From assembly GCA_030055525.1 (NCBI GenBank), contig JASFYJ010000001.1, positions 26,616 to 90,615 on the forward strand: a DNA stretch of 64,000 nt, written 5' to 3'. The stretch comes from Archaeoglobales archaeon (lineage in GTDB: Archaea; Halobacteriota; Archaeoglobi; Archaeoglobales; Archaeoglobaceae). Shown piece by piece: positions 2,965 through 61,412 of this stretch. Position 1 is the stretch's first letter; every line of letters begins with the position of its first letter. Under the pieces are notes generated by a model, which was not told the DNA's origin, did not search any database, and saw only the letters and a program-made list of their open reading frames with translations. Both the position numbers and the translations under genes were made by a program.

Positions 2965-3832
2965 AGGTGTGATTCCAGCGATAGTTACGCCTTTCAAGGA
3001 AGATTCCAGCATAGACTATCGTGGACTGGAAAAAAATATCGAATTTCTTGAAAGATACGTCGATGCAATTGTTCCTGCAGGAACCACTGGAGAGGCGGCA
3101 ACTTTGAGCTATGAAGAACACATAGAGGTTGTGAAGTTCGTGGTTGAGACTTCAAATGTACCAGTAATCGCTGGTTCAGGTTCAAATTCGACAAAAGAGG
3201 CTGTATGGTTAACAAAAGAAGTTGAAAAGGCTGGAGCTGATGCGGCTTTGCTTATAACTCCTTACTACAACAAACCAAATCAGCAGGGGCTTTACGAACA
3301 TTACAAAATCATAGCGAAAGAAGTATCGCTGCCGCTGATAATATACAACGTTCCCAGTAGAACTGCAGTAAATATAGCCCCCGAAACAGTTGCCAAACTA
3401 TCGGAGATAGATAATTATGTAGGAATAAAAGAAGCAAGTGGAGATCTTAAGCAGATTTCTAAGATAATTCAGCTGACTGCTAGTAAAAATTTCGTAGTTC
3501 TCTCTGGAGACGATCTAATGACGTTGCCAATTCTAGCTATTGGTGGTGAAGGAGTAATCAGCGTTGCAGCAAATGTTGTGCCAAAGATGATGAAGGAAAT
3601 GGTTGATGCTTACAAAAGTGGGAATGTAAAGAAGGCTGCCGAGCTAAATCTTAGGCTTTTACCTCTGTTCGAGGTTTTGTTCATCGAAACGAATCCGATG
3701 CCAGTTAAAAAAGCTCTAGATCTTATCGGATTGGCAGGTGGGAAGCCAAGGCTACCGCTTGTTGAGCTGAGTGCAGATAAAACCGAAAAACTTAGAGCTG
3801 TTTTGAAGGAGCTGAATCTGCTCAATCCATAG
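2957..3832 (+). CDS. dapA: 4-hydroxy-tetrahydrodipicolinate synthase
   Basis: GVIPAIVTPF, GTTGE, IIYNVPSRT and GIKEASGD motifs are present. Length is 291 aa. Confidence 0.9.
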   Translation: MFKGVIPAIVTPFKEDSSIDYRGLEKNIEFLERYVDAIVPAGTTGEAATLSYEEHIEVVKFVVETSNVPVIAGSGSNSTKEAVWLTKEVEKAGADAALLITPYYNKPNQQGLYEHYKIIAKEVSLPLIIYNVPSRTAVNIAPETVAKLSEIDNYVGIKEASGDLKQISKIIQLTASKNFVVLSGDDLMTLPILAIGGEGVISVAANVVPKMMKEMVDAYKSGNVKKAAELNLRLLPLFEVLFIETNPMPVKKALDLIGLAGGKPRLPLVELSADKTEKLRAVLKELNLLNP

Positions 3833-3857
3833 ATGGCTCAATTTAAAAATTGGCCAT
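3833..3857. terminator. hairpin between convergent dapA and the pilin-like operon
   Basis: ATGGCTCAATTTAAAAATTGGCCAT forms a near-perfect inverted repeat (one bulged T) and is followed by T-rich sequence. Confidence 0.3.
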
Positions 3858-3891
3858 AGAAATATTTTATCGCTTTTATATAAATCTTCTA

Positions 3892-4854
3892 TTAAGATTT
3901 TAGCAGAACACTTTTGAAAACAACGATTAAGGTGGTTTGGTAATTTTCTGTGTCAATCATTGCCATCGGTATAAATGCCTTTTCGCATGTACAAACGCAG
4001 GGACTAATACCATAGCAATTGTGGCAATTTTCAGCTATTAGTGTTGTGTTCAAAAGCTCGAATCTGTCAAAGAACCTGCACCATGCACTCTGGTGTTCAG
4101 TGTCTCTTACCAAAACGTACGCATAATCGAAGTTTTTCCATTGATGATTGCTTCCTATATTCAAGTCATCGATCTTCGAAAATATGTTATCGAGTTCCTC
4201 AACTGTGAATTTGAATCTCCCCGAACCGCCTATCGAAAGATTTCCTTGCAAAGAAGGTATTGTGATCACGAGATACTTGCTTGTTCCAGCAGTAGTATTT
4301 AGGAGTATTCTTGGCTCATAGAGGAGCTTTGAATATTCCGCATTTGAATACTTCGAAAAAACCGCTCCAGCTTCCATCGATAAAAGCCAGTCCTTGTATT
4401 CATATCTCAGTTCTCCGGCTGTTGTGTTTAAAATGCAGGCAGTTCTGTTAAGCCCGACATTACAACTAGTAGTGTTGGGATAGATTAGTCCGGTCGAGAG
4501 ATTGAGACAGTAAAGCCTAAATTTTTCCCCTGAAGAAGTAATTTCATTGCAATCATCCTGCGAAATTGTGTTAGAGCTATTAACAAAAGCTACTATGAAT
4601 TCGGGGCCCTTACTTAAAAACATGTTACCTCCCTGAAGTTCTATTTCAGCAACTTGCGAAGGAACATCTCCGAAGGCTACAGAGTAAACTATGTACTGTA
4701 TCCTTTTGAAGCTCTTTTCAAGGCTCTGCGATAGAACGCTCCTCTTCATATCCTCAACCATGTTGTTTACCTGCACAAAAACGATTGCAAGCACTGCCAT
4801 CACGATGCCGAAGATGTAGATGTAGCCTGTTACTTCGGAAACAGCGTTCCTCAT
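3892..4854 (-). CDS. class III signal peptide (archaeal type IV pilin-like) protein F, 320 aa
   Basis: The N-terminus MRNA|VSEVTGYIYIFGIVMAVLAIVFVQV is a short charged leader followed by a hydrophobic helix. There are at least 8 N-X-S/T sequons. The start overlaps the upstream stop by 1 nt. Confidence 0.7.
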   Translation of the reverse strand: MRNAVSEVTGYIYIFGIVMAVLAIVFVQVNNMVEDMKRSVLSQSLEKSFKRIQYIVYSVAFGDVPSQVAEIELQGGNMFLSKGPEFIVAFVNSSNTISQDDCNEITSSGEKFRLYCLNLSTGLIYPNTTSCNVGLNRTACILNTTAGELRYEYKDWLLSMEAGAVFSKYSNAEYSKLLYEPRILLNTTAGTSKYLVITIPSLQGNLSIGGSGRFKFTVEELDNIFSKIDDLNIGSNHQWKNFDYAYVLVRDTEHQSAWCRFFDRFELLNTTLIAENCHNCYGISPCVCTCEKAFIPMAMIDTENYQTTLIVVFKSVLLKS

Positions 4855-5546
4855 CAGCTCACCTCTATTGAGACAATTAAAATACTTATTTCTCGCGGCA
4901 AAGCTGTTTCAACGACTATTTTTCGATCGCTACAATCGCTGTTCGCTAAAATACTCGAATCCATCTTTTCAATCGCCTTCTTCCATAGCTCGCAGAAGTC
5001 GCCTTCAATCTCAAGCTTCGTTGCGTTGAATTGCTCTGTTGCATTGTATCTCATGCTCATCGTCACCCTGCTACCGCCGGCGGAGAATTTGCCGATGAAG
5101 TTGTAGAAGGTAAAGTAAACAGTATCGTTTGTTGCAATAACCGAAGGCTCGGAAATTGGAATCGGGATAACCTCGCCATAGGCCTTCTCGAAAATTCCAG
5201 ATTCCAGAGTTACGATTCTACCGCTAACTTCGATGTTGAGGTTTTGCAGTTGTCTCTTTACATTTACACTGCCCAAATTAAAAGATAAATTAAGTCCAGC
5301 TGAGGTATAGATGCTACCCATGTTTAACTGGATAGTTTTAATCGTCGCTACCTCGCTACCGAACTTCATTCTCTCAACAAGCTCTTTTATTTCCGCCATC
5401 GTCTTTACGGCGTTTCTGTAATTGATGTTGTCTATGCCGGAAGATATCGTCGGATAGGACATCATGTAGATAATTCCGGCTGTAAAAACCATCACAAAGA
5501 TTACCAGCATCGCTCCAACGGTCTCGGATACGGCTTTTGAATTCAT
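4854..5546 (-). CDS. class III signal peptide (archaeal Pilin_N-type) protein E, 230 aa
   Basis: The N-terminus MNSKA|VSETVGAMLVIFVMVFTAGIIYMM resembles the archaeal pilin N-terminal consensus (K/R-A-V-S-x-V-I/G...). Confidence 0.75.
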   Translation of the reverse strand: MNSKAVSETVGAMLVIFVMVFTAGIIYMMSYPTISSGIDNINYRNAVKTMAEIKELVERMKFGSEVATIKTIQLNMGSIYTSAGLNLSFNLGSVNVKRQLQNLNIEVSGRIVTLESGIFEKAYGEVIPIPISEPSVIATNDTVYFTFYNFIGKFSAGGSRVTMSMRYNATEQFNATKLEIEGDFCELWKKAIEKMDSSILANSDCSDRKIVVETALPREISILIVSIEVS

Positions 5547-5548
5547 AA

Positions 5549-8443
5549 TTACCTCAGGATTATTCTAGCATCCTCGCCCGAAACAACGTTAACCTTGCTC
5601 TGCACGAATCCACAATCTTCTATGGGTATAATTATATTATCCAAGGGTTCGCCCCTGTTGTTAAGGGCAACATACTGAATGAAAGAGTTGCTGTTGTCGT
5701 TTATTTCGTATTCGCCGTAGGGAGCATCATCCTTAACTTTAAGCCTAATCACGAGGTCTATGACTTCATCTTTCTGGATTGAGGTTATGTTAAGCCTTAT
5801 TTCCGTCTTTGTATCGCGTTCAATTATCTCGGGTTGTGAAACTGAGGAATTTAATTTGTTCGAAGTAGCAGTAACACCTAGAACCTTAAAAGGTGATAAA
5901 AATGAAACGTTGAGGCTTTCTACAACTGAGATATTAGTTGCGGCTATCTGGAAAGCGTTGAAAATTGTTCTGTAAGCTTCAACAAGTTCCTCGCTTGTAG
6001 TGGCGAAGAAGTAGCATGGCTTGTTGTTGTCTGGGCGTATAGAGGCGATATCTCTAAGGAGTTGCTGTCCATCCCCACTTATATCCGTGCTAAAGCCGAT
6101 TGTGCAGATTGAAACGTTAAATCCGTTTACTTTTACTGTATTGTTGTTCTTTATGTAATTCGCTATACATCGGGCTTGACCAAACGCACCGAGTGACGTT
6201 GGACATCCGTAATTACTTCCTTCGCTCACAACTTGATTGGCATCTCCATCTGTTAACAATATCATTAGAGGTCTTAACCCCTGAATACAGGTTGTGCAGT
6301 TGTTTCCAGATTCGTTCCAGATCGGATAAACTTTAGAACCCCAATACAACCCACCAGCAATGTTTGTAGCGCTAAGAGGTTTAAAGTTAATAATGCTTAC
6401 ATTAACTGCAGATTTATCATTGGTCATGTATTTCAGAACACTTGAAGACGCATTCACCACAACTCTTTGAGCGCTCGTTGAAAAATTGGTCAAACCTACA
6501 AAATCCTTTTGTCCCAGCATGCCATTGAACGTTGTTCCAGCAAGCTTTGCTGCGTCAATACGCATCACAAACACCGTTGCGTTAAAAGTCACTGAGTCCT
6601 TGGTTGTTGGCACAACAACGAACTTATAAGTTCCGGGGTTCGGGTATGGTATAAATGCGTCAGCGCTCATGTTAAAGTACTCTCTTGAAATATCCCTATT
6701 GTCCTGTGCCACATACCAAGCGGTAGAATTCCAGTATGCATATCGTGTGCAACCACTCCAAGACCCTAGTATGCACCATCTTATTACTGTCTTGTTATTG
6801 CCCTTCACCAGAAACTCCTTTGTGTTATCTGCCTTCACAAACCAGACGTTCAACTTGTTATCGTTAAAGCTATTATATCCACAAGTGGAAAAGTTATATC
6901 GCCAGTAGTAATTGCCCTCAGAAGGTATAAATTTCCAATTGCTCCAGATTCTTTCACTCCACTCTGGCAGATTCTGAACACCTACAACTGCCAAAAATCC
7001 ATAACTACCGCCAGAGGGCAACGGTGGTAATTCAAATTCGACTTCTTGTTTGTTCACATATTGATAAGTTTTGTTCAGAATCTCAGTATTCTGGTGTTTA
7101 ACAACGATTGTCAGGTTTATCTGCTCTGGAGCTCTTGCAACAACTTCGATCGTGTAATTTCCAGCGGGAGCATTGTTTTGTGAATAATATTTTCCAATTT
7201 TTCCTCCAGAATTATAATCGCCGCCTGAGTCAACTCCGTTAACGTAGAGTTTAACGAAAGATTCATCGTAGCCAACGTTATACCACGGACAATTCCCTGT
7301 CGCATTACTGCATGCTTTACACGCTGAATTTGAATACCAACTCGTAAGCCTATCGCTCGTATAAGCCCAGATCTCAAGTTTCCCTGAGGAGTTCAGCGTA
7401 ACTGTTTCCTTTATAACATTCGGATTTACTGTAAAACTGTAATTCTTAAAGATCGTTGGCAAGATCATGCTCCCTGAGACGTCGATGACATGCACAACGC
7501 TTAAATTCGTTGAATTTAGCAGGAAACCTCTACCTTCAATGCGAAGATTGACATCAAATACATCTCCGGGGGAAACAATCCTTGGCTCGATCCATTTCTT
7601 GCAAACCAGATATGGATTCGATTCTTCCGGTTTCAGAGAAACGAGAAGTTTATTTGCATCGCTTGCATTGCAGTGAGGTAAATCGACAATTTCAGCCCTG
7701 ATCCATGCGTAACATTCGTAATCGTTGCTTGTATCATTTCTTTTCACGCATTGATTTTTTACTTCATTTTCATCGATCAATTTTAGTGCTACTATCTTAT
7801 CGATATCTGAACCGGAAATAACACTACCGTTCCAGAGCGTTACGTTCCACCGTATGCTTTTTGTGATCTCATCTTTATTGACAAAGCTAACCTTTAATCC
7901 GAAGTTATCTTCAATAGCAACGCTGCTCTGAATAAACTCTATTCTTGGTTTTGGAATGAACGGGCACTCTATGGATTTTTCGTACTCCACCTTCGGTTTC
8001 TCTTCTTTCTTTTCAGCTTCTACCTGAAAACTTATAATTTCTCCTCCAGTTCCTACAGATATTACTCCTGATTTTGATATAAATTTCGCTAAACCCAAGC
8101 CACTAGCTGCAGAGTATTTTCCCCCCTCGACTAATATGTAAGCAACATCTCCCGTTTTATTTAGCTTTGCAGAATATCCCAGCTTGCCTATCGTCGATGG
8201 CATCTCTATTTTCGTGCTAATTGATCCGTTATCTGGAAGAATTAGGACGTAGTCTGTGTAGATTGCAGAAATCTGCGATGCGACATCTGCAAAGTTGTTC
8301 TCCACAACCCTTGAAAGCTGAACCTCGCTTAGAGTATCGTGAATCTGAAGACTCATCACAACTACAAAAACGCTCAGAATTCCCATCAGAATCAGATATT
8401 CCACAAGCAAAGATACCCCTTTATCAGCACCCATCCCCATCAC
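5549..8443 (-). CDS. pilin-like vWA (MIDAS) domain protein D, 964 aa, putative adhesin / TadG-like
   Basis: The N-terminus is GADKG|VSLLVEYLILMGILSVFVVVMSL. MIDAS DVSGSM lies at aa 321-326 (nt 7466-7483, verified by back-translation). SATNIAGGL lies at about aa 691-699 and ILLTDGDAN at aa 728-736. A hand count gives about 30 N-X-S/T sequons. Confidence 0.8.
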   Translation of the reverse strand: MMGMGADKGVSLLVEYLILMGILSVFVVVMSLQIHDTLSEVQLSRVVENNFADVASQISAIYTDYVLILPDNGSISTKIEMPSTIGKLGYSAKLNKTGDVAYILVEGGKYSAASGLGLAKFISKSGVISVGTGGEIISFQVEAEKKEEKPKVEYEKSIECPFIPKPRIEFIQSSVAIEDNFGLKVSFVNKDEITKSIRWNVTLWNGSVISGSDIDKIVALKLIDENEVKNQCVKRNDTSNDYECYAWIRAEIVDLPHCNASDANKLLVSLKPEESNPYLVCKKWIEPRIVSPGDVFDVNLRIEGRGFLLNSTNLSVVHVIDVSGSMILPTIFKNYSFTVNPNVIKETVTLNSSGKLEIWAYTSDRLTSWYSNSACKACSNATGNCPWYNVGYDESFVKLYVNGVDSGGDYNSGGKIGKYYSQNNAPAGNYTIEVVARAPEQINLTIVVKHQNTEILNKTYQYVNKQEVEFELPPLPSGGSYGFLAVVGVQNLPEWSERIWSNWKFIPSEGNYYWRYNFSTCGYNSFNDNKLNVWFVKADNTKEFLVKGNNKTVIRWCILGSWSGCTRYAYWNSTAWYVAQDNRDISREYFNMSADAFIPYPNPGTYKFVVVPTTKDSVTFNATVFVMRIDAAKLAGTTFNGMLGQKDFVGLTNFSTSAQRVVVNASSSVLKYMTNDKSAVNVSIINFKPLSATNIAGGLYWGSKVYPIWNESGNNCTTCIQGLRPLMILLTDGDANQVVSEGSNYGCPTSLGAFGQARCIANYIKNNNTVKVNGFNVSICTIGFSTDISGDGQQLLRDIASIRPDNNKPCYFFATTSEELVEAYRTIFNAFQIAATNISVVESLNVSFLSPFKVLGVTATSNKLNSSVSQPEIIERDTKTEIRLNITSIQKDEVIDLVIRLKVKDDAPYGEYEINDNSNSFIQYVALNNRGEPLDNIIIPIEDCGFVQSKVNVVSGEDARIILR

Positions 8444-8735
8444 AGAAATCTACCTCCGCATTCTTGAATTCAACTTTGTTGATGCTGACATAACAAACCC
8501 AACCATTTTTGGCACAAAGTACCTTCAATTGTTCCTGAGCTTCAGAATTTATGTTTCTACTATCTCTTATTTCTATCAAATTTCTTAACTCCTCCTTCGG
8601 AAAAGCAAGCATTGTTCTTGAACTTTCAATTCCAGCAATTATATTCTGAGCATATATATATGAGAGGGAAAGAATTATTACAACCACCGCTGCAGCGAAC
8701 AACAGGATCATCTGGCCCCTATTATTCATCTCCAT
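8424..8735 (-). CDS. class III signal peptide (pilin-like) protein C, 103 aa
   Basis: The N-terminus MEMNNRG|QMILLFAAAVVVIILSLSYIYA has an R-G|Q prepilin-type site. It overlaps both neighbouring genes. Confidence 0.65.
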   Translation of the reverse strand: MEMNNRGQMILLFAAAVVVIILSLSYIYAQNIIAGIESSRTMLAFPKEELRNLIEIRDSRNINSEAQEQLKVLCAKNGWVCYVSINKVEFKNAEVDFCDGDGC

Positions 8736-9205
8736 AACGTCAATCTCACCTCCACAACTTTGGCATTAGAACAGGGGGAATTTGAGGGGTTAGCGATAAC
8801 AAATCTGCTAGCCCTTACAGCATTTGGAGTTGGATCTTTGTTAAAACCCGCAATGTTTAGCACCTCAATTTCACTGCCATTGACGCAAAGTATCTCAATT
8901 CTTCCGTGAGCCGTTAGGCTGCTCAATACGAGGGATAGATTACTGCTGAACTCTGCCGGAGCTATGCATGTGTTGTTATTGCAGCTAAGATTTGCTATCA
9001 TACCTATTAAAGATGCGTTTCCGCCTTGCGGGCTATCGAGAACCCTTAAAATGTCGTAGCCCAGTTGCTTCAACTGTACATTCTCAAATTCGCTCCATGA
9101 AGGTGCTAAGACTACAGTGCTTTGAAAAATTGTGTAAGTTGCTATCAAAAGTAAAAGCGACGCCGCAACGCCTTCGAGCGTGAAAGTTTGGGCTTTCAAG
9201 TCCAT
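8726..9205 (-). CDS. class III signal peptide (pilin-like) protein B, 159 aa
   Basis: The N-terminus MDLKA|QTFTLEGVAASLLLLIATYTIF contains an FTLE motif reminiscent of bacterial type IV pilins. Confidence 0.7.
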   Translation of the reverse strand: MDLKAQTFTLEGVAASLLLLIATYTIFQSTVVLAPSWSEFENVQLKQLGYDILRVLDSPQGGNASLIGMIANLSCNNNTCIAPAEFSSNLSLVLSSLTAHGRIEILCVNGSEIEVLNIAGFNKDPTPNAVRASRFVIANPSNSPCSNAKVVEVRLTLWR

Positions 9206-9804
9206 ATTCTAACCTCCAGCTTTGCAACACATCGATTTGCAATTAGATCGCAGTTATCAACAGATCTGTCGAGGTAAACGATTCTTTCAAACTTAATTAC
9301 CTGCGCACTCTTCTCTTGATCTCCGTGGTTTAAAGTTACTTCAGAATTGTTCGTTAAAATGGCACCAGATAAGTTTTTCAGAGATACGCTCATCCTGTAG
9401 ACAATCGGGGATCCGAAAGGTGATAAATTTAGACCTAAATACTTCTTTACCTCTTCTCTACAGGTCGTGTTGTTGAGAAGTTCAGCAAACTTTTCGACTT
9501 TAGTAAGGTTGAGGTTGTTGTAGCTCTTCCCACTACCAGCATTAAATACTATTAAACCTGGCCGAAATTCAACGCTTTTGCAGTTTGTTAAGTTTACTTC
9601 ACTCTCCCAATCCGAAGGATAACCTGGATCTTCGGCCAGCAGAGCAGCAATCCTATAAGCCTGATGGGCAAGGTTTATCTCATTTCTAACATCAGCAAAA
9701 ACGCCCGGCAAAAAGCTCGCTACAAAGATGAACGTGAACAGGAATATCGATAAGCCTACAAGCAGATCTAAACTCAACTTCCCTTTATTTACCGATTCAT
9801 CCAT
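9196..9804 (-). CDS. class III signal peptide (pilin-like) protein A, 202 aa, first gene of the operon
   Basis: The N-terminus is MDESVNKG|KLSLDLLVGLSIFLFTFIFVASFL. It carries several N-X-S/T sequons. Confidence 0.6.
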   Translation of the reverse strand: MDESVNKGKLSLDLLVGLSIFLFTFIFVASFLPGVFADVRNEINLAHQAYRIAALLAEDPGYPSDWESEVNLTNCKSVEFRPGLIVFNAGSGKSYNNLNLTKVEKFAELLNNTTCREEVKKYLGLNLSPFGSPIVYRMSVSLKNLSGAILTNNSEVTLNHGDQEKSAQVIKFERIVYLDRSVDNCDLIANRCVAKLEVRIWT

Positions 9805-9827
9805 TAATAATAGTTATGTGGGCAAAG

Positions 9828-9835
9828 TTATAAAT
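9828..9835 (-). promoter_or_regulatory. TATA box of the pilin-like operon (leaderless transcript predicted)
   Basis: The minus strand reads ATTTATAA, centred about 27 nt upstream of the ATG at 9804. It is flanked by two copies of TTTGCCCA (plus-strand TGGGCAAA at 9819-9826 and 9854-9861). Confidence 0.45.
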
Positions 9836-9863: not shown

Positions 9864-11228
9864 TTAAATCCTCTCGTAATCATCTTCAATTCTCTCGATG
9901 TCATCTTCATGCAGATATTCGCCGATCTGGATTTCGATTATCTCCAAATCAACCTTTCCAGGGTTCTCTATTCTGTGCAAAACACCTATGGGTATGAAAG
10001 TGCTCTCTCCAGGCCTTAGCAGAACTTCTTTACCATCGTAAACTATCTTTGCGGTACCTTTGACAACAACCCAGTGTTCACTTCTATGATAATGTCTCTG
10101 CAAACTAAGCCTTTTTCCGGGCTTCACTGTTATCCTCTTGATCTTGTATCTGTCACCCTCCTCAAGCACAGTATAACTTCCCCAAGGTCTGTAGGCTGTT
10201 CTGTGGACTATAGCTCTAACGTCTTTCCTCTCTTCAAGCATTTTAAAGATGTTTTTTACTTTCTGGGTTTCTCCAAGCTTTGAAATTAGGATTGCATCGT
10301 CAGTGTCTATAACCACGAGATCCTCTACTCCGACAAGTGCCGTAAGCCTTGAGGCAATAATCAAGTTATTTCTAGATTCTAAAGTTATCGCTTCACCCTT
10401 TATGGCATTTTTATCTCCATTTTTATTCATTACCTCGTATATCGAATCAAAACTGCCTAAATCGTTCCAGTAAGTTTCAAGCGGAACTACAGCAACTTTG
10501 GAAGATCTTTCAAGTAGTCCATAGTCTATAGATATCTCCGGAACCATTTCGTAGGCTTTTTCGAGATCATTGGACTCGAAAGCTTCCGCAACTTCAGGTG
10601 CTTTTTCTTTGACTTCATCAATAAAAATTTTTGAGTCAAACAAAAACATTCCACTGTTCCAAAAACATCCTAAATTTAAATATTCTCTAGCTTTCTCTTC
10701 GGTTGGCTTCTCTTTGAATTCTCTCACTTCATAAGCTTCCTCAAGCTTTTTGCCCGGTAAGATGTATCCGTAGCCTGTATGGGGTTTTGTGGGTTTTACG
10801 CCGAAAGTGATCAGATATTTATCTGAAAGCTCCTCAGCGATTTTAAAAGCTTTTAAGTAACTCTCATTCACGTCAATTAAATGATCTGAAGGTAGGACAG
10901 CAACTTTTCCATTGCCAATTATTTTAATTCCATAATAAATTGCTGGCAGAGTGTTCTTCACTTTTGGTTCGAGAATTATATTTTCTTTTGGTATTTTAAA
11001 GCTGGCATCTTCGATATCATCTAATATCCGGAACTTGTACTCTTTGTTCGCAACTATGTATACTTCTTCGGGTTTCGAAAAAAGTAAGGCCCTTCTTAAA
11101 GTTTTTTGAAACAGACTCTCACCAAAAAGTCTTATGAATTGTTTAGGCATCTGCTCTCTGCTTAGGGGCCATAACCTTGTCCCCTTCCCACCGGCGAGGA
11201 TCAGCGTTTTCACAAAAAAGATCTGCAC
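9864..11228 (-). CDS. manC: mannose-1-phosphate guanylyltransferase / mannose-6-phosphate isomerase (cupin C-terminus)
   Basis: LILAGGKGTRLWPLS nucleotidyltransferase motif. The C-terminal cupin region reads LSLQRHYHRSEHWVVVKG. Confidence 0.85.
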   Translation of the reverse strand: MQIFFVKTLILAGGKGTRLWPLSREQMPKQFIRLFGESLFQKTLRRALLFSKPEEVYIVANKEYKFRILDDIEDASFKIPKENIILEPKVKNTLPAIYYGIKIIGNGKVAVLPSDHLIDVNESYLKAFKIAEELSDKYLITFGVKPTKPHTGYGYILPGKKLEEAYEVREFKEKPTEEKAREYLNLGCFWNSGMFLFDSKIFIDEVKEKAPEVAEAFESNDLEKAYEMVPEISIDYGLLERSSKVAVVPLETYWNDLGSFDSIYEVMNKNGDKNAIKGEAITLESRNNLIIASRLTALVGVEDLVVIDTDDAILISKLGETQKVKNIFKMLEERKDVRAIVHRTAYRPWGSYTVLEEGDRYKIKRITVKPGKRLSLQRHYHRSEHWVVVKGTAKIVYDGKEVLLRPGESTFIPIGVLHRIENPGKVDLEIIEIQIGEYLHEDDIERIEDDYERI

Positions 11229-28994: not shown

Positions 28995-29145
28995 ACAAGA
29001 TTTAAAAACATTTCGGTTTAGAGTAGCTCGGAATACCTCGCGCAGCCTTTTCCTTAGACTCCACTGGGGATCAAGGAAGTCAGAGAAAAATACAATCACA
29101 GAAATGAACAAGTAGTAAATAACTTACTTAGTCCAAAAACAAAAG

Positions 29146-29220
29146 CGGACCCGGCGGGATTTGAACCCGCGATCTACGGCTTAGAAGGCCGTCGCTCTGT
29201 CCTGGCTGAGCCACGGGCCC
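29146..29220 (-). tRNA. tRNA-Arg (anticodon TCT)
   Basis: Hand-folded cloverleaf: acceptor GGGCCCG/CGGGTCC, anticodon arm ACGGC-CTTCTAA-GCCGT, T arm GCGGG-TTCAAAT-CCCGC. No encoded CCA. Confidence 0.9.
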
Positions 29221-55563: not shown

Positions 55564-55638
55564 AGCGGGGTGGGGTAGTCAGGTGATCCCGGCGGGCTCA
55601 TAACCCGCAGATCCGTGGTTCAAATCCACGCCCCGCTA
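55564..55638 (+). tRNA. initiator tRNA-Met (anticodon CAT)
   Basis: A1:U72 acceptor pair (AGCGGGG/CCCCGCU), discriminator A, three G:C pairs closing the anticodon loop (GCGGG-CUCAUAA-CCCGC), and T arm CGUGG-UUCAAAU-CCACG. Confidence 0.9.
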
Positions 55639-58345: not shown

Positions 58346-59647
58346 ATGCGGAAAATTGTGTTATTTGCCATCTTATGGCTATCTATAAGCTGTGTGAACG
58401 CTGGAGAGATAGTTGTCGGTGTACTTGGGCCAATGGATGTTCCAGAAGGTTATTCGCAACTTAAAGCTGTACAATTGGCTGCTGAGGAGATAAACGCTGC
58501 TGGTGGTATATTAGGAAATAAAATAAAAGTTGTCTATGGGGATGACAAACTCAAACCTGATGTAGGTGCAAGTGAATTCAGAAGACTTGCCGAAATAGAG
58601 AAAGCTAAAGTTATAATTGGCGGTTTTTCAAGCGGAGTAATGCTAGCTACGATGGAAGTTATGGCCGAAACTAAAACATTATTTTTAGCAGACTCGTCGA
58701 CACCTCAAGCATCGGCGAAAGTTGCTGAGAACTATGAGAAGTACAAGTACTGGTTCAGGTTGCAGAACAATGCAACCACCTTCGCCTACGATACCGAAGA
58801 TATGATAAGATATTTGATCAGCAAGGGTTACGAAGTGAAGAAGGTTTACATCATAAAGGATGAACACATCTGGACGGAAGATGTTACGAAGGCACTATAT
58901 CCAATACTTGAAAAACTCGGAGTGCAGGTTGTAAAGGATGTTAAAATTCCAAGGGGTTACAGCGAATTTGAAAAGCTGATAATCGAAGCTGAAAAGCTTG
59001 ATGCCGACCTTATAATTCCTATTCTGGCTTTAACTGGTACTGATGATGTTCTTGTAAAGCAGTGGGCCACTTTAAAACCAAAAATCCTACTTGCTGGCCA
59101 CACAATCACTGCAATTGATGCAGACTTTTACGAAAGAACAAACGGTGCTGCAAACTATCTGATATTTTCAGCTCACGGAGGTGTTGTTGTCACCTCTCCT
59201 CCAACGCAGATGTGTAAACATTTCATAGAGGCTTATCGTTCTAAATACGGGAAATATCCGGAAGCGCATCAGGCATATGGTGCGTACGATGCACTCTATC
59301 TCTATAAGACTGCTGTAGAGAATGCATTCAAAGCGGGAGAGAAAGATCCATTCGATCCAGAGGTCGTTGTTAAGTATTTGGAAATGTTCAACGAATCGAA
59401 CCCCATCGAACTTACAAGAAAAATAGCCTTTACATCAAATCATGACCTTGCGTGGGGAGATAAGTACGTCAAGAACTGGGTATCTCAGTGGCAGGATGGT
59501 AAACAATATATACTCTACCCAGAAAAAATGGCAACAGCAGAATTAAAGCTTCCACCATGGTTTAAAGAGGAAAAGAAGACACCCGGATTTGAGCTGCTGT
59601 TGGCTATGATTGCAATCGTCGCAGTTGCGTTAAGGTTAAGAGGATGA
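58346..59647 (+). CDS. Liv-type (PBP1) substrate-binding protein with C-terminal PGF-type membrane anchor
   Basis: Signal peptide (MRKIVLFAILWLSISCVNA), a PBP type 1 pattern (VVGVLGPM...), and a C-terminus KKTPGFELLLAMIAIVAVALRLRG. The tracker's upstream extension is antisense to livG. Confidence 0.8.
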   Translation: MRKIVLFAILWLSISCVNAGEIVVGVLGPMDVPEGYSQLKAVQLAAEEINAAGGILGNKIKVVYGDDKLKPDVGASEFRRLAEIEKAKVIIGGFSSGVMLATMEVMAETKTLFLADSSTPQASAKVAENYEKYKYWFRLQNNATTFAYDTEDMIRYLISKGYEVKKVYIIKDEHIWTEDVTKALYPILEKLGVQVVKDVKIPRGYSEFEKLIIEAEKLDADLIIPILALTGTDDVLVKQWATLKPKILLAGHTITAIDADFYERTNGAANYLIFSAHGGVVVTSPPTQMCKHFIEAYRSKYGKYPEAHQAYGAYDALYLYKTAVENAFKAGEKDPFDPEVVVKYLEMFNESNPIELTRKIAFTSNHDLAWGDKYVKNWVSQWQDGKQYILYPEKMATAELKLPPWFKEEKKTPGFELLLAMIAIVAVALRLRG

Positions 59648-60486
59648 GCGCAGTAGCATCTCTTGTAATATACGGAGCTGTAATCGGAGGAATCTGGGCT
59701 TTGGTAGCCGCAGGTTTCTCCCTTATTTTTGGGGTAATGAGGGTTTTGAATTTCGGGCATGGAGCTATATTTATATCAGCAGCCTACGCAACAGTGGCGT
59801 TTGCAGCGTTCGGTATGCACATCGCTTTTGTTGGATCTCTCCTCATAGGATTAGCGGTAGGGCTTATCATCTATTTTCTGATAAAGCCCGTCAGAAAGAA
59901 AGAAATCACGGCAGTAATCGTGACTTTAGCCTTCGCGTTGCTAGTTCAGCATCTTTTACTGCTTATCTTTGGAAATAGAGGCCTTACAGTTCAACCGGTT
60001 GTAGATGGGTTGTTTGAAGTCTTTGGTGCCAAATTTGCAGCTATAAGGGTTGTAACGCTAATTGCGGCTATCTTGGTTTTGTTGGCGCTTGAGACAGTTA
60101 TGCGTACAAGCTTTGGAAAACAGATCACGGCTGTTAGTGAAGATAGCGATGCAGCAATGCTTTTAGGTATAGATGTTGAGAGAGTTTACCTGCTAGTGAT
60201 TCTCATCTCTTCTCTTCTAGCAGCAATCGCAGGCTACTTCTACGTACAGGTTTTCTCGGTAAATCCTGAACTAGGTTTGAAAGTTCTGATTTACGCATTT
60301 GCAATAGTCATCTTGGGCGGTTTGGGGAGTATAAAGGGAAGTGTTATATCTTCATTCATCCTCGGCTATATAATAGCAGCGACGATACTCTTTCTAAGCC
60401 CAAGGTGGAGTGAGCTTGTTATGCTGCTTGCGATAGTCCTAACGCTAATAATCAGACCTTATGGCATATTCGGGGTGAAAGAGTGA
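59644..60486 (+). CDS. livH: branched-chain amino acid ABC transporter permease (LivH-type)
   Basis: About 8 TM segments, NFGHGA motif, and an overlapping stop/start with its neighbours. Confidence 0.8.
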   Translation: MSAVASLVIYGAVIGGIWALVAAGFSLIFGVMRVLNFGHGAIFISAAYATVAFAAFGMHIAFVGSLLIGLAVGLIIYFLIKPVRKKEITAVIVTLAFALLVQHLLLLIFGNRGLTVQPVVDGLFEVFGAKFAAIRVVTLIAAILVLLALETVMRTSFGKQITAVSEDSDAAMLLGIDVERVYLLVILISSLLAAIAGYFYVQVFSVNPELGLKVLIYAFAIVILGGLGSIKGSVISSFILGYIIAATILFLSPRWSELVMLLAIVLTLIIRPYGIFGVKE

Positions 60487-61412
60487 AATTAGCGTTCATA
60501 TACTTCTTGACAGGTTTGTTAGCTTATTTTATATTACCTGAAGCCTACCTTTATACTGTAGGTTTTGCGATGCTCTTTGCTGCACTTTCTGCAAGCTGGG
60601 ATTTGACAGTTGGCTACACTGGACAAGTGAACTTAGGTCACACAACATTCGTAGGTCTTGGAGCTTACATTTTTGCAGTACTTTTAGCTGGAAGATTAGG
60701 ATTCGAGTTTAATATATATGTAGCGTTTTTAGCAGCAATTTTAGTTTCAGCATCTTTAGGAGCTGCCTTTGGGGCTATAGCTTTAAGGCTAAGAGGGTAC
60801 TACTTTGCACTAATAACAGCAATTTTACCGTTAGTTTTTATGCAAACAGTTTTTATTTTCAGTGAAGTTTTTGGGGGAGAAGAGGGTTTCTCCATTGGGC
60901 TGGAAAGAGGTGTGACTCCGGAGTGGAGGTATCTTTTTGCATTGCTGGTCTCTTTTGCAGTACTATCAATTCTGCTTCTGATCGTAAGAAGTAGATTTGG
61001 AGTGAGGTTCATGGCTATCAGAGATAATGAAGAACTTGCTGAAGCCATTGGAATAGACACTACTAAATATAAAGTACTATCTTTTACAATAAGCTCAGCC
61101 ATGGCTGGTTTTGTTGGGGCTGCAATAGTTTTGTATAGAATAACTGTCTCGCCAGATCTTTACAGCGTAGATCTGATGCTTATGATCATCCTAGCTTCGG
61201 TTGTGGGAGGGATAGGTACAATATATGGGCCTTTCTTTTTCGGTCTGCTGGTATATTTGCTCAAGGTTTTCGTCGTGAGAGAATTTCTACTGAGTTTTGG
61301 TTTAAGGATGAGCGATGAAATAATACTTTATGCAATTTTAATAATTGCAGCGATCATGATGCCCAACGGTATAGCGGCGATGTTCAAAAGACATATTAAA
61401 CGTATTGATTAG
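60483..61412 (+). CDS. livM: branched-chain amino acid ABC transporter permease (LivM-type)
   Basis: TGQVNLGH motif and a polytopic membrane profile. Confidence 0.8.

Follow-up and report, generated by a model that had tools for sequence, protein, structure and literature searches.

What might six prepilin-like proteins do in an archaeon when nothing that could assemble a pilus is encoded beside them? This question is raised by an operon in a 64,000-nucleotide (nt) stretch of an Archaeoglobales genome (GenBank assembly GCA_030055525.1, contig JASFYJ010000001.1, positions 26,616 to 90,615; here called the window). Six translationally coupled genes on its minus strand (positions 3892-9804) encode proteins of 103 to 964 amino acids (aa), which we number as open reading frames (ORFs) 1 to 6 in gene order. 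A first-pass annotation of this DNA had listed six such ORFs, and its coordinates, sizes, and overlaps were all reproduced here (Table 1). In gene order, consecutive genes from ORF1 to ORF4 overlap by 10, 10, and 20 nt, ORF4 and ORF5 are 2 nt apart, and ORF5 and ORF6 share 1 nt; the overlap of 20 nt between ORF3 and ORF4 presupposes a GTG start for ORF4, and the public annotation has the same start. Two conclusions are firmly supported. The operon is a clade-2, or System 2, type IV pilus-like pilin set orthologous to a locus catalogued in Archaeoglobus fulgidus, and ORF4, its largest product, is a modular pilin with a von Willebrand factor A (vWA) adhesin in which the metal ion-dependent adhesion site (MIDAS) is intact.

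Gene content, relatives, and pilus machinery

Using Pfam, we obtained matches above the cut-off to DUF7287 (ORF1), DUF7288 (ORF2), and DUF7289 (ORF5 and ORF6) and weak matches below the cut-off to DUF7261 (ORF3) and DUF7266 (ORF4, N terminus only). The NCBIfam scan gave no match for any of the six proteins. A full-text literature search by the DUF numbers returned no paper, and exact-sequence look-ups of ORF5 and of a 964-aa public protein (P0001) returned no record.

The gene set itself has a published counterpart. Makarova, Koonin, and Albers (2016; PMC4858521, Table S4) list a locus of A. fulgidus DSM 4304 (NC_000917, 678040..683939) with the order arCOG06117-arCOG04652-arCOG06552-arCOG03926-arCOG02911-arCOG02911; all six are classed as "clade_2" pilins, four of the genes are FlaFind positive, and no ATPase or TadC gene adjoins the set. 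The A. fulgidus locus that we retrieved (L017) matches this table entry in gene lengths and flanking genes. Its products (190, 162, 105, 959, 258, and 305 aa) are gene-for-gene orthologous to those of our operon and syntenic with them. The two loci share the same six families, their order, near-identical sizes, N-terminal motifs, and the absence of adjacent machinery, whereas their flanking genes differ; nothing else of substance separates them.

In the same study, loci of this kind are described as a second type of clade-2 euryarchaeal type IV pilus, exemplified by the PilB4 locus of Haloferax volcanii; arCOG03926 is the "predicted major pilin," distantly related to PilA, arCOG02911 is a proposed minor pilin common to both clade-2 types, and the evolution of pilin sets is stated to be independent of that of ATPase/TadC modules, the two being able to act in trans (PMC4858521). 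A 2026 preprint by Sivabalasarma and Albers renamed the type "System 2" and reports that its loci have several pilins, not all of which carry class III motifs, and encode large adhesin-like proteins; according to the preprint, the subsystem also has a PilY-like adhesin. By Pfam order and by orthology to the A. fulgidus locus, our operon contains the System 2 set as we defined it (arCOG06117, arCOG04652, arCOG06552 or arCOG07777, arCOG03926, and arCOG02911 twice, in this order); the tie to the H. volcanii PilB4 locus is that drawn by Makarova et al. (PMC4858521). The operon is a new copy of a locus type catalogued in 2016 and adds another orthologue to it. The first-pass annotation had found no match to a characterised archaeal system. 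This holds for the archaellum, Aap, Ups, the bindosome, and Epd, to none of which the operon belongs, but since an identical six-gene, machinery-free locus had been tabulated in A. fulgidus (PMC4858521), the claim is true only for experimentally characterised systems.

All fetched loci of sufficient length have the six genes in the same order, although the genomic contexts differ. These 13 loci come from A. neptunius, A. fulgidus, a Geoglobus-type contig, and 10 of 14 Archaeoglobi-type genome loci. The 14 loci were collected by a contig scan with the vWA-pilin alignment using two C-terminal peptide patterns; because of these patterns, the fact that the scan returned Archaeoglobi-type loci only says little on the wider distribution of the set.

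We found neither a pilus ATPase nor a platform protein nor a prepilin peptidase in the window, in agreement with the first-pass annotation. Walker A motifs are absent from all window proteins of more than 320 aa. Each of the seven multipass membrane proteins that were scanned falls into some other Pfam family (LysE, M50 protease, NfeD, SSF, histidine kinase, Mrp-type antiporter, and DUF7144), with two ORFs of nine transmembrane (TM) segments each lying outside that scan; these two follow a pair of ABC-type ATPases. Finally, tblastn with PilB and TadC of a related locus found nothing in the window (best E = 0.12, an ABC-type P-loop protein) or in the other fetched loci.

The machinery does adjoin the set in several relatives. 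In Archaeoglobus sp. JdFR-41 (L008), whose vWA pilin is 40% identical to ORF4, the operon is directly preceded by genes for a T2SSE ATPase with PilB3_C, a 9-TM T2SSF/TadC protein, and an extra DUF7289 pilin. The same pilin set has TadC, FlaI, and KaiC-like ATPase genes as neighbors in A. profundus, and a FlaI ATPase gene in A. veneficus (PMC4858521). Because the set lies next to ATPase and TadC genes, or at least an ATPase gene, in these organisms, its functional link to type IV pilus machinery is well supported at the level of their gene neighborhoods and is extrapolated to the present genome. In most Archaeoglobi, the set stands alone, away from ATPase and TadC genes. At other places in its genome, A. 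fulgidus has two ATPase/TadC pairs that lack pilin genes, a single FlaK-type peptidase, and a major pilin of the PilA family that stands alone. As a separate observation, the extra pilin of JdFR-41 (406 aa, DUF7289-like; 3545-4765 of that locus, minus strand) is divergent and lies between TadC and the six-gene operon, and the window has no such seventh pilin.

Table 1. Positions and properties of the operon genes, the segments of ORF4, and neighboring features in the window (arrows mark the putative prepilin peptidase site; motifs are from orthologue alignments)
Feature	Coordinates	Strand	Size or residues	Family or structure	N-terminal site, motif, or remark
TATA box ATTTATAA	9828-9835	-			A-rich run resembling a transcription factor B recognition element before the box; last base 24 nt upstream of the ORF1 ATG (9804)
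ORF1	9196-9804	-	202 aa	DUF7287 (E = 1.4e-13) / arCOG06117	NKG↓KLSLD; motif [GA]↓KLSLD; 52% identical to A. fulgidus DUF7287 protein P0045
ORF2	8726-9205	-	159 aa	DUF7288 (E = 1.2e-10) / arCOG04652	DLKA↓QTFTLEG (+1 Gln, +6 Glu); motif [GA]↓QTFTLEG
ORF3	8424-8735	-	103 aa	arCOG06552 position; DUF7261 (E = 9e-4, below cut-off)	NNRG↓QMILL; motif [KR]G↓Q[MVI]
ORF4	5549-8443	-	964 aa	DUF7266 / arCOG03926	GTG start; ADKG↓VSLLVEY; invariant Glu at +6; motif mostly [KR]G↓VS..VEY (23-sequence alignment)
ORF4 pilin module	8039-8443	-	residues 1-135	Helix 6-66 (61 residues), beta-sheet 74-129	Class III-type N terminus
ORF4 beta domains			residues 151-305	Beta domains	From AlphaFold2 model
ORF4 first vWA strand	7469-7504	-	residues 314-325	Strand (314-321 in model)	MIDAS D321-x-S323-x-S325
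ORF4 insertion	6563-7459	-	residues 329-627	Beta rich, ~300 residues	Splits vWA; several conserved Cys
ORF4 rest of vWA	5954-6562	-	residues 628-830	Rossmann fold, alternating helices and strands	MIDAS Thr693 and Asp732
ORF4 C-terminal domain	5585-5947	-	residues 833-953	Beta-sandwich	From model
ORF5	4854-5546	-	230 aa	DUF7289 (E = 2.3e-11) / arCOG02911	NSKA↓VSETVG; motif mostly [GA]↓VSE
ORF6	3892-4854	-	320 aa	DUF7289 (E = 7.5e-13) / arCOG02911	MRNA↓VSEVTG; motif [GA]↓VSE; paralogue of ORF5
TATA-like octamer TTTATATA	3877-3884	-			Perfect; 8 nt past the ORF6 stop
Oligo-T run TTTTT	3845-3849	-			~43 nt past the ORF6 stop, between ORF6 and convergent dapA (59 bp apart)
ManC-like gene	9864-11228	-		Mannose-1-phosphate guanylyltransferase	59 bp upstream of the operon
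tRNA-Arg(TCT)	29145-29220	-			Ordinary
tRNA-Met(CAT)	55564-55638	+			Ordinary
Two 9-TM ORFs	59644-61412				Follow two ABC-type ATPases

Pilin-type N termini and the modular pilin ORF4

All six products start in the manner of a prepilin, as the first-pass annotation had stated. A crude class III rule, which asks for [KRN][GA] within 35 residues and then a hydrophobic stretch of 17 residues, selected all but one of the operon ORFs and, among the 223 window ORFs of at least 50 aa, just one other (a 50-aa junk ORF), which excludes chance clustering; ORF2 (MDLKA↓QTFTLEG) fell just short of the hydrophobicity cut-off of the rule. Across orthologues of 24 to 96% identity, the residue at position -1 was G or A in every aligned N terminus of all six families. 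The class III assignments here are based on this rule and on the orthologue alignments, while the FlaFind and PilFind calls are those given in the table of Makarova et al. for orthologues, with four of six products FlaFind positive in A. fulgidus and five of six in A. veneficus. The sites of ORF1 and ORF6 deviate. In ORF6, position -2 is N and not K or R. The ORF1 site (9781-9804) is atypical yet conserved, with a basic residue (Lys or Arg) at +1 and Asp at +5, and has a bacterial look; neither in A. fulgidus nor in A. profundus is the ORF1 orthologue FlaFind positive, and that of A. veneficus is PilFind positive instead. N-glycosylation sequons number 2.73 per 100 aa in the operon products versus 0.38 in 25 other window proteins, and this high density fits an extracellular location of the products.

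We modeled ORF1 with AlphaFold2 (predicted local distance difference test [pLDDT] score, 92.5) and obtained an N-terminal helix of 54 residues (5-58) followed by an alpha/beta head, so that the predicted protein is pilin-like in outline. The family also has longer members. In the most distant loci, DUF7287 orthologues are not ~200 but 296 to 354 aa long (L013, 6898-7788; L014, 8054-9118), with a 100- to 160-residue insertion before the conserved C-terminal strand, and many long forms (330 to 360 aa) occur in metagenomes. A profile search with the DUF7287 alignment gave at least 100 matches, nearly all of them Archaeoglobi-type and none haloarchaeal among the matches listed.

The N-terminal motif of ORF2 is kept in 14 orthologues. 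ORF3, in which the helix has no acidic residue, has orthologues at the same operon position in 14 fetched loci. The A. fulgidus orthologues of ORF2, ORF3, and ORF6 are each FlaFind positive. ORF6 had a sub-threshold match to Pilin_N (E = 0.009; 17.3 bits versus a cut-off of 25.2), beyond which the Pfam scan placed none of the products in a characterised archaeal pilin or archaellin family. Cysteines are common in part of the set: the C terminus of ORF3 (8424-8510) holds a four-Cys segment (C..C...C...C), ORF4 has 18 Cys residues, many of them conserved, and ORF6 has 10. These may form extracellular disulfides or metal sites in a host that is presumably a thermophilic anaerobe.

ORF4 combines a pilin module with a vWA domain that is split by an insertion, as predicted by an AlphaFold2 model (mean pLDDT, 78.9; Table 1). 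The MIDAS (DxSxS, T, D) is complete; in an alignment of 23 homologues, no substitution occurs at D321, S323, S325, or T693, and conservation of D732 is at least 90%. Foldseek searches of the PDB with this model returned vWA proteins, to E = 5.6e-10; the high matches included tip adhesins of sortase pili (SpaC, PitA, and GBS104) and PilB, a type IV minor pilin of Streptococcus sanguinis (7B7P/7BA2). A sequence-profile search of the PDB returned only vWA domains, with marginal E values (ITIH4 and alpha2-delta). The Pfam VWA models probably miss ORF4 because ~300 residues part the DxSxS strand from the rest of the domain; VWA matches were found on more distant homologues.

ORF4 is 100% identical over its full length to the hypothetical protein QFX40_00210 of an Archaeoglobales metagenome-assembled genome (MAG). 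The homologues recovered, with identities as low as 27%, belong to Archaeoglobaceae genomes and MAGs, several of them under the name "vWA domain-containing protein"; the identity to the vWA pilins of cultured Archaeoglobus species is ~47%. We also considered whether ORF4 could be an ArnB-like regulatory vWA protein and rejected this candidate, given its pilin-type N terminus, its many N-glycosylation sequons, and the lack of an FHA or MoxR partner gene.

A search with the pilin module alone (residues 1-135) retrieved 41 cluster representatives among 1.8 billion, with a bimodal length distribution: the DUF7266 module occurs either in stand-alone pilins of ~150 aa or in fusions of 750 to 1620 aa. 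The long fusions carry PKD and VWA domains, PKD, PA14, and VWA domains, or PKD domains and DUF11-type repeats, which suggests that the module is a general platform for grafting adhesins. For example, two proteins of 1623 aa (P0154) and 1394 aa (P0156) from other organisms join the DUF7266 module to PKD and DUF11/DUF7507 repeats or to PKD, PA14, and VWA.

A predicted tip complex and its rivals

What, then, could the set do? In our view, it probably represents a dedicated System 2 pilin set that forms a low-copy minor-pilin priming or tip complex with a vWA adhesin, the assembly machinery and a PilA shaft being encoded elsewhere. The six products would enter the membrane by their N-terminal hydrophobic helices, and most or all of them would be trimmed after the conserved G or A by a FlaK/PibD-type prepilin peptidase. 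A PilB-type ATPase and a TadC platform, encoded elsewhere, would then extract them from the membrane. The resulting complex would nucleate a filament whose shaft is a small PilA-type pilin, also encoded elsewhere, and would end up at the tip, showing the vWA domain for metal-dependent adhesion. As the genes overlap and share one promoter, the six proteins would be made in roughly equal amounts. We base this proposal on the coupling of the genes behind one promoter, on ORF4 being large and modular, on the separate PilA and the pilin-less motors of A. fulgidus, and on bacterial precedents. Its inferred elements are signal-peptide cleavage, complex formation, the tip location, the part played in priming, and which pilin forms the shaft. 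The first-pass annotation had likewise proposed a pilin set with a large adhesin that is served by machinery from elsewhere. The family assignments, the FlaFind-positive orthologues, the complete MIDAS, and the linkage in JdFR-41 strengthen that proposal; the accompanying remark that the operon could not be matched is correct only in part.

The precedents for a tip or priming complex that contains a vWA protein are CpaJ/K/L of the Tad pilus (PMC11870444), PilA/B/C of S. sanguinis (PMC8179133), and PilVWX-PilY1. [quoted passage not shown] ORF4 and CpaL/TadG thus have in common a pilin module, a split vWA topology, and SpaC among the top matches. They differ in that CpaL is accompanied by two small pilins and ORF4 by five and in that the archaeal protein has additional beta-sandwich domains. 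In the Pfam scan, ORF4 had no Tad, TadE, or Pilin-family match, even at E values up to 1. Since no match to Tad, TadE, or TadG families was obtained at the sequence level, the resemblance is architectural, and homology is unsupported.

PilB of S. sanguinis (PDB 7B7P) is a bimodular type IV minor pilin of 426 aa with a vWA module (PMC8179133). Like ORF4, it joins a pilin module to a grafted vWA domain with a MIDAS, and the two match in Foldseek at E = 1e-5 to 4e-5, but the similarity is confined to the vWA part, and the profile match to 7b7p is weak (E = 0.01). The vWA domain of PilB has two protruding arms, whereas that of ORF4 is split by the ~300-residue domain, and PilB has a bacterial class III motif with Glu at +5. 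The "modular pilin" pattern described for bacteria (PMC8179133) is followed by ORF4 and the other DUF7266 forms.

Characterised archaeal filaments and surface structures, namely, the archaellum, Aap, Ups, the bindosome, Epd of Methanococcus maripaludis, and PilA1-6/PilB3C3 of H. volcanii, likewise have class III-type N termini. They require an ATPase (PilB/FlaI), a platform protein (TadC/FlaJ), and a prepilin peptidase, and their pilins can come from genes in trans. At the level of sites, the Gln at +1 of ORF2 and ORF3 is as in EppA substrates, and the [GA]↓VSE site of ORF5 and ORF6 resembles the RA↓VS site of haloarchaeal PilA. In contrast to our operon, these systems have no vWA modular pilin and no such six-gene set.

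Several points weigh against a tip complex. Sequence homology to TadE/F/G, GspH-K, or PilVWX was absent from the Pfam scan of the six products, and among the small subunits there was no Pfam or NCBIfam match to the GspH-K, PilVWX/FimU-PilY1, or TadE/F families; of these subunits, ORF1 alone was modeled. The head of ORF1 gave no Foldseek match in the PDB better than E = 0.2 and none to known minor pilins, and because of this we assign it no minor-pilin fold. With Lys at +1 and FlaFind-negative orthologues in two species, ORF1 may escape processing altogether. System 2 has no experimentally characterised member; the PilB4 locus of H. volcanii is expressed, and PilB4 is detected in glycerol minimal medium. 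The ATPase, TadC, peptidase, and PilA presumed for this organism are an extrapolation from other Archaeoglobi. Lastly, the published model predicts arCOG03926 to be the major pilin of a PilA-independent filament (PMC4858521).

That model is also the main rival. According to it (Makarova et al. 2016, Fig. 4B), the set would build a dedicated filament of its own, with the ORF4 family as the major subunit and the other pilins co-polymerised. The annotation of arCOG03926 and its distant relationship to PilA speak for this reading, and so do the A. profundus protein, which at only 130 aa in the table of Makarova et al. has the size of an ordinary pilin, and the stand-alone DUF7266 pilins of ~150 aa. 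ORF4, however, has 964 aa, of which ~830 belong to adhesin modules, and such modular pilins are believed to be accommodated only at the tip of a filament. Its gene sits in the middle of the operon, translationally coupled and not separately and highly expressed, and A. fulgidus has a separate major pilin of the PilA family. We therefore consider it unlikely that ORF4 is the bulk subunit of a filament.

Alternatively, the proteins could form a short pseudopilus or a membrane-proximal platform, similar to the bindosome or type II secretion, that holds the vWA protein at the cell surface or pushes it through the S-layer. In H. volcanii, only pilB3C3-dependent pili are visible although PilB4/C4 is expressed and regulated, and the Sulfolobus bindosome sets a precedent for class III proteins that make no long filaments. 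The pilin-type N termini and the linkage to machinery fit such a structure equally well, so that on these data it and the tip complex fare alike. The operon nevertheless includes no secretin-like or extra membrane component and no linked substrate gene, and we judge this explanation improbable as well. That the six proteins are ordinary uncleaved membrane anchors of a surface complex unrelated to type IV pilus machinery, to which the noncanonical site of ORF1 and the distance of the operon from ATPase/TadC genes in most Archaeoglobi would be suited, is very unlikely in view of the -1 G/A and family-specific motifs conserved in all six families, the four or five FlaFind-positive orthologues of A. 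fulgidus and A. veneficus, the fact that PilB and TadC genes adjoin the set in two relatives (JdFR-41 and A. profundus) and an ATPase gene does so in A. veneficus, and the pilin-typical lengths of the modeled N-terminal helices of ORF1 and ORF4 (54 to 61 residues).

The tip complex, if it exists, could be part of a broader pattern, which we put forward only tentatively. The set might be a portable tip and priming cassette, the archaeal counterpart and possibly a relative of CpaJ/K/L (TadE/F/G) of the Tad pilus, that works in trans with generic PilB/TadC motors and nucleates and caps PilA-type filaments with a MIDAS-dependent adhesin, the DUF7266 module serving to graft vWA, PA14, PKD, and DUF11 domains across Euryarchaeota. 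System 2 PilB4-type loci are widespread in Euryarchaeota, and in Haloferax only PilA/PilB3C3 pili have been seen. The Archaeoglobi operon offers a testable prediction, that five small pilin-like proteins and one vWA modular pilin make up an adhesive tip or priming complex, and is a reasonable entry point for asking whether archaeal pili use such complexes. If this is true, the principle of the minor-pilin tip complex and the bacterial "modular pilin" strategy would extend to archaea, and the finding would be relevant to the proposal that the bacterial Tad pilus has an archaeal ancestry.

Promoter and surroundings of the operon

The operon is preceded by a TATA box of its own (Table 1), which the first-pass annotation had described as placed for a leaderless mRNA. 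When we aligned the upstream regions of 14 orthologous loci, each of the 14 showed a TATA-like box, always equally far from the start codon, and no obvious Shine-Dalgarno sequence was seen in these regions. Because the position of the box is conserved, this phylogenetic footprinting bears out the earlier description, and a dedicated promoter with a predicted leaderless or near-leaderless mRNA is well supported by the comparison.

At the other end, the oligo-T run that follows the ORF6 stop codon may be an archaeal terminator. It shares the gap to the convergent dapA with the octamer TTTATATA, a second perfect TATA-like sequence on the minus strand. No credible minus-strand gene lies downstream of this octamer, which is probably AT-rich spacer.

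Scans for tRNAs and Rfam families found only two structured RNAs in the window, both ordinary tRNAs (Table 1). A mobile island was considered as an origin of the operon and rejected; its composition is unremarkable, and its flanks are housekeeping genes that differ between genomes. Directly upstream, on the same strand, lies a gene for a ManC-like mannose-1-phosphate guanylyltransferase, the start of which matches the nucleotidyl-transferase motif. In A. fulgidus, the ManC orthologue (arCOG02427, "fused to cupin domain") is immediately followed, again on the same strand, by the gene for the stand-alone PilA-family major pilin. This adjacency of ManC and pilin genes may tie the supply of GDP-mannose to pilin glycosylation, or it may be a coincidence.

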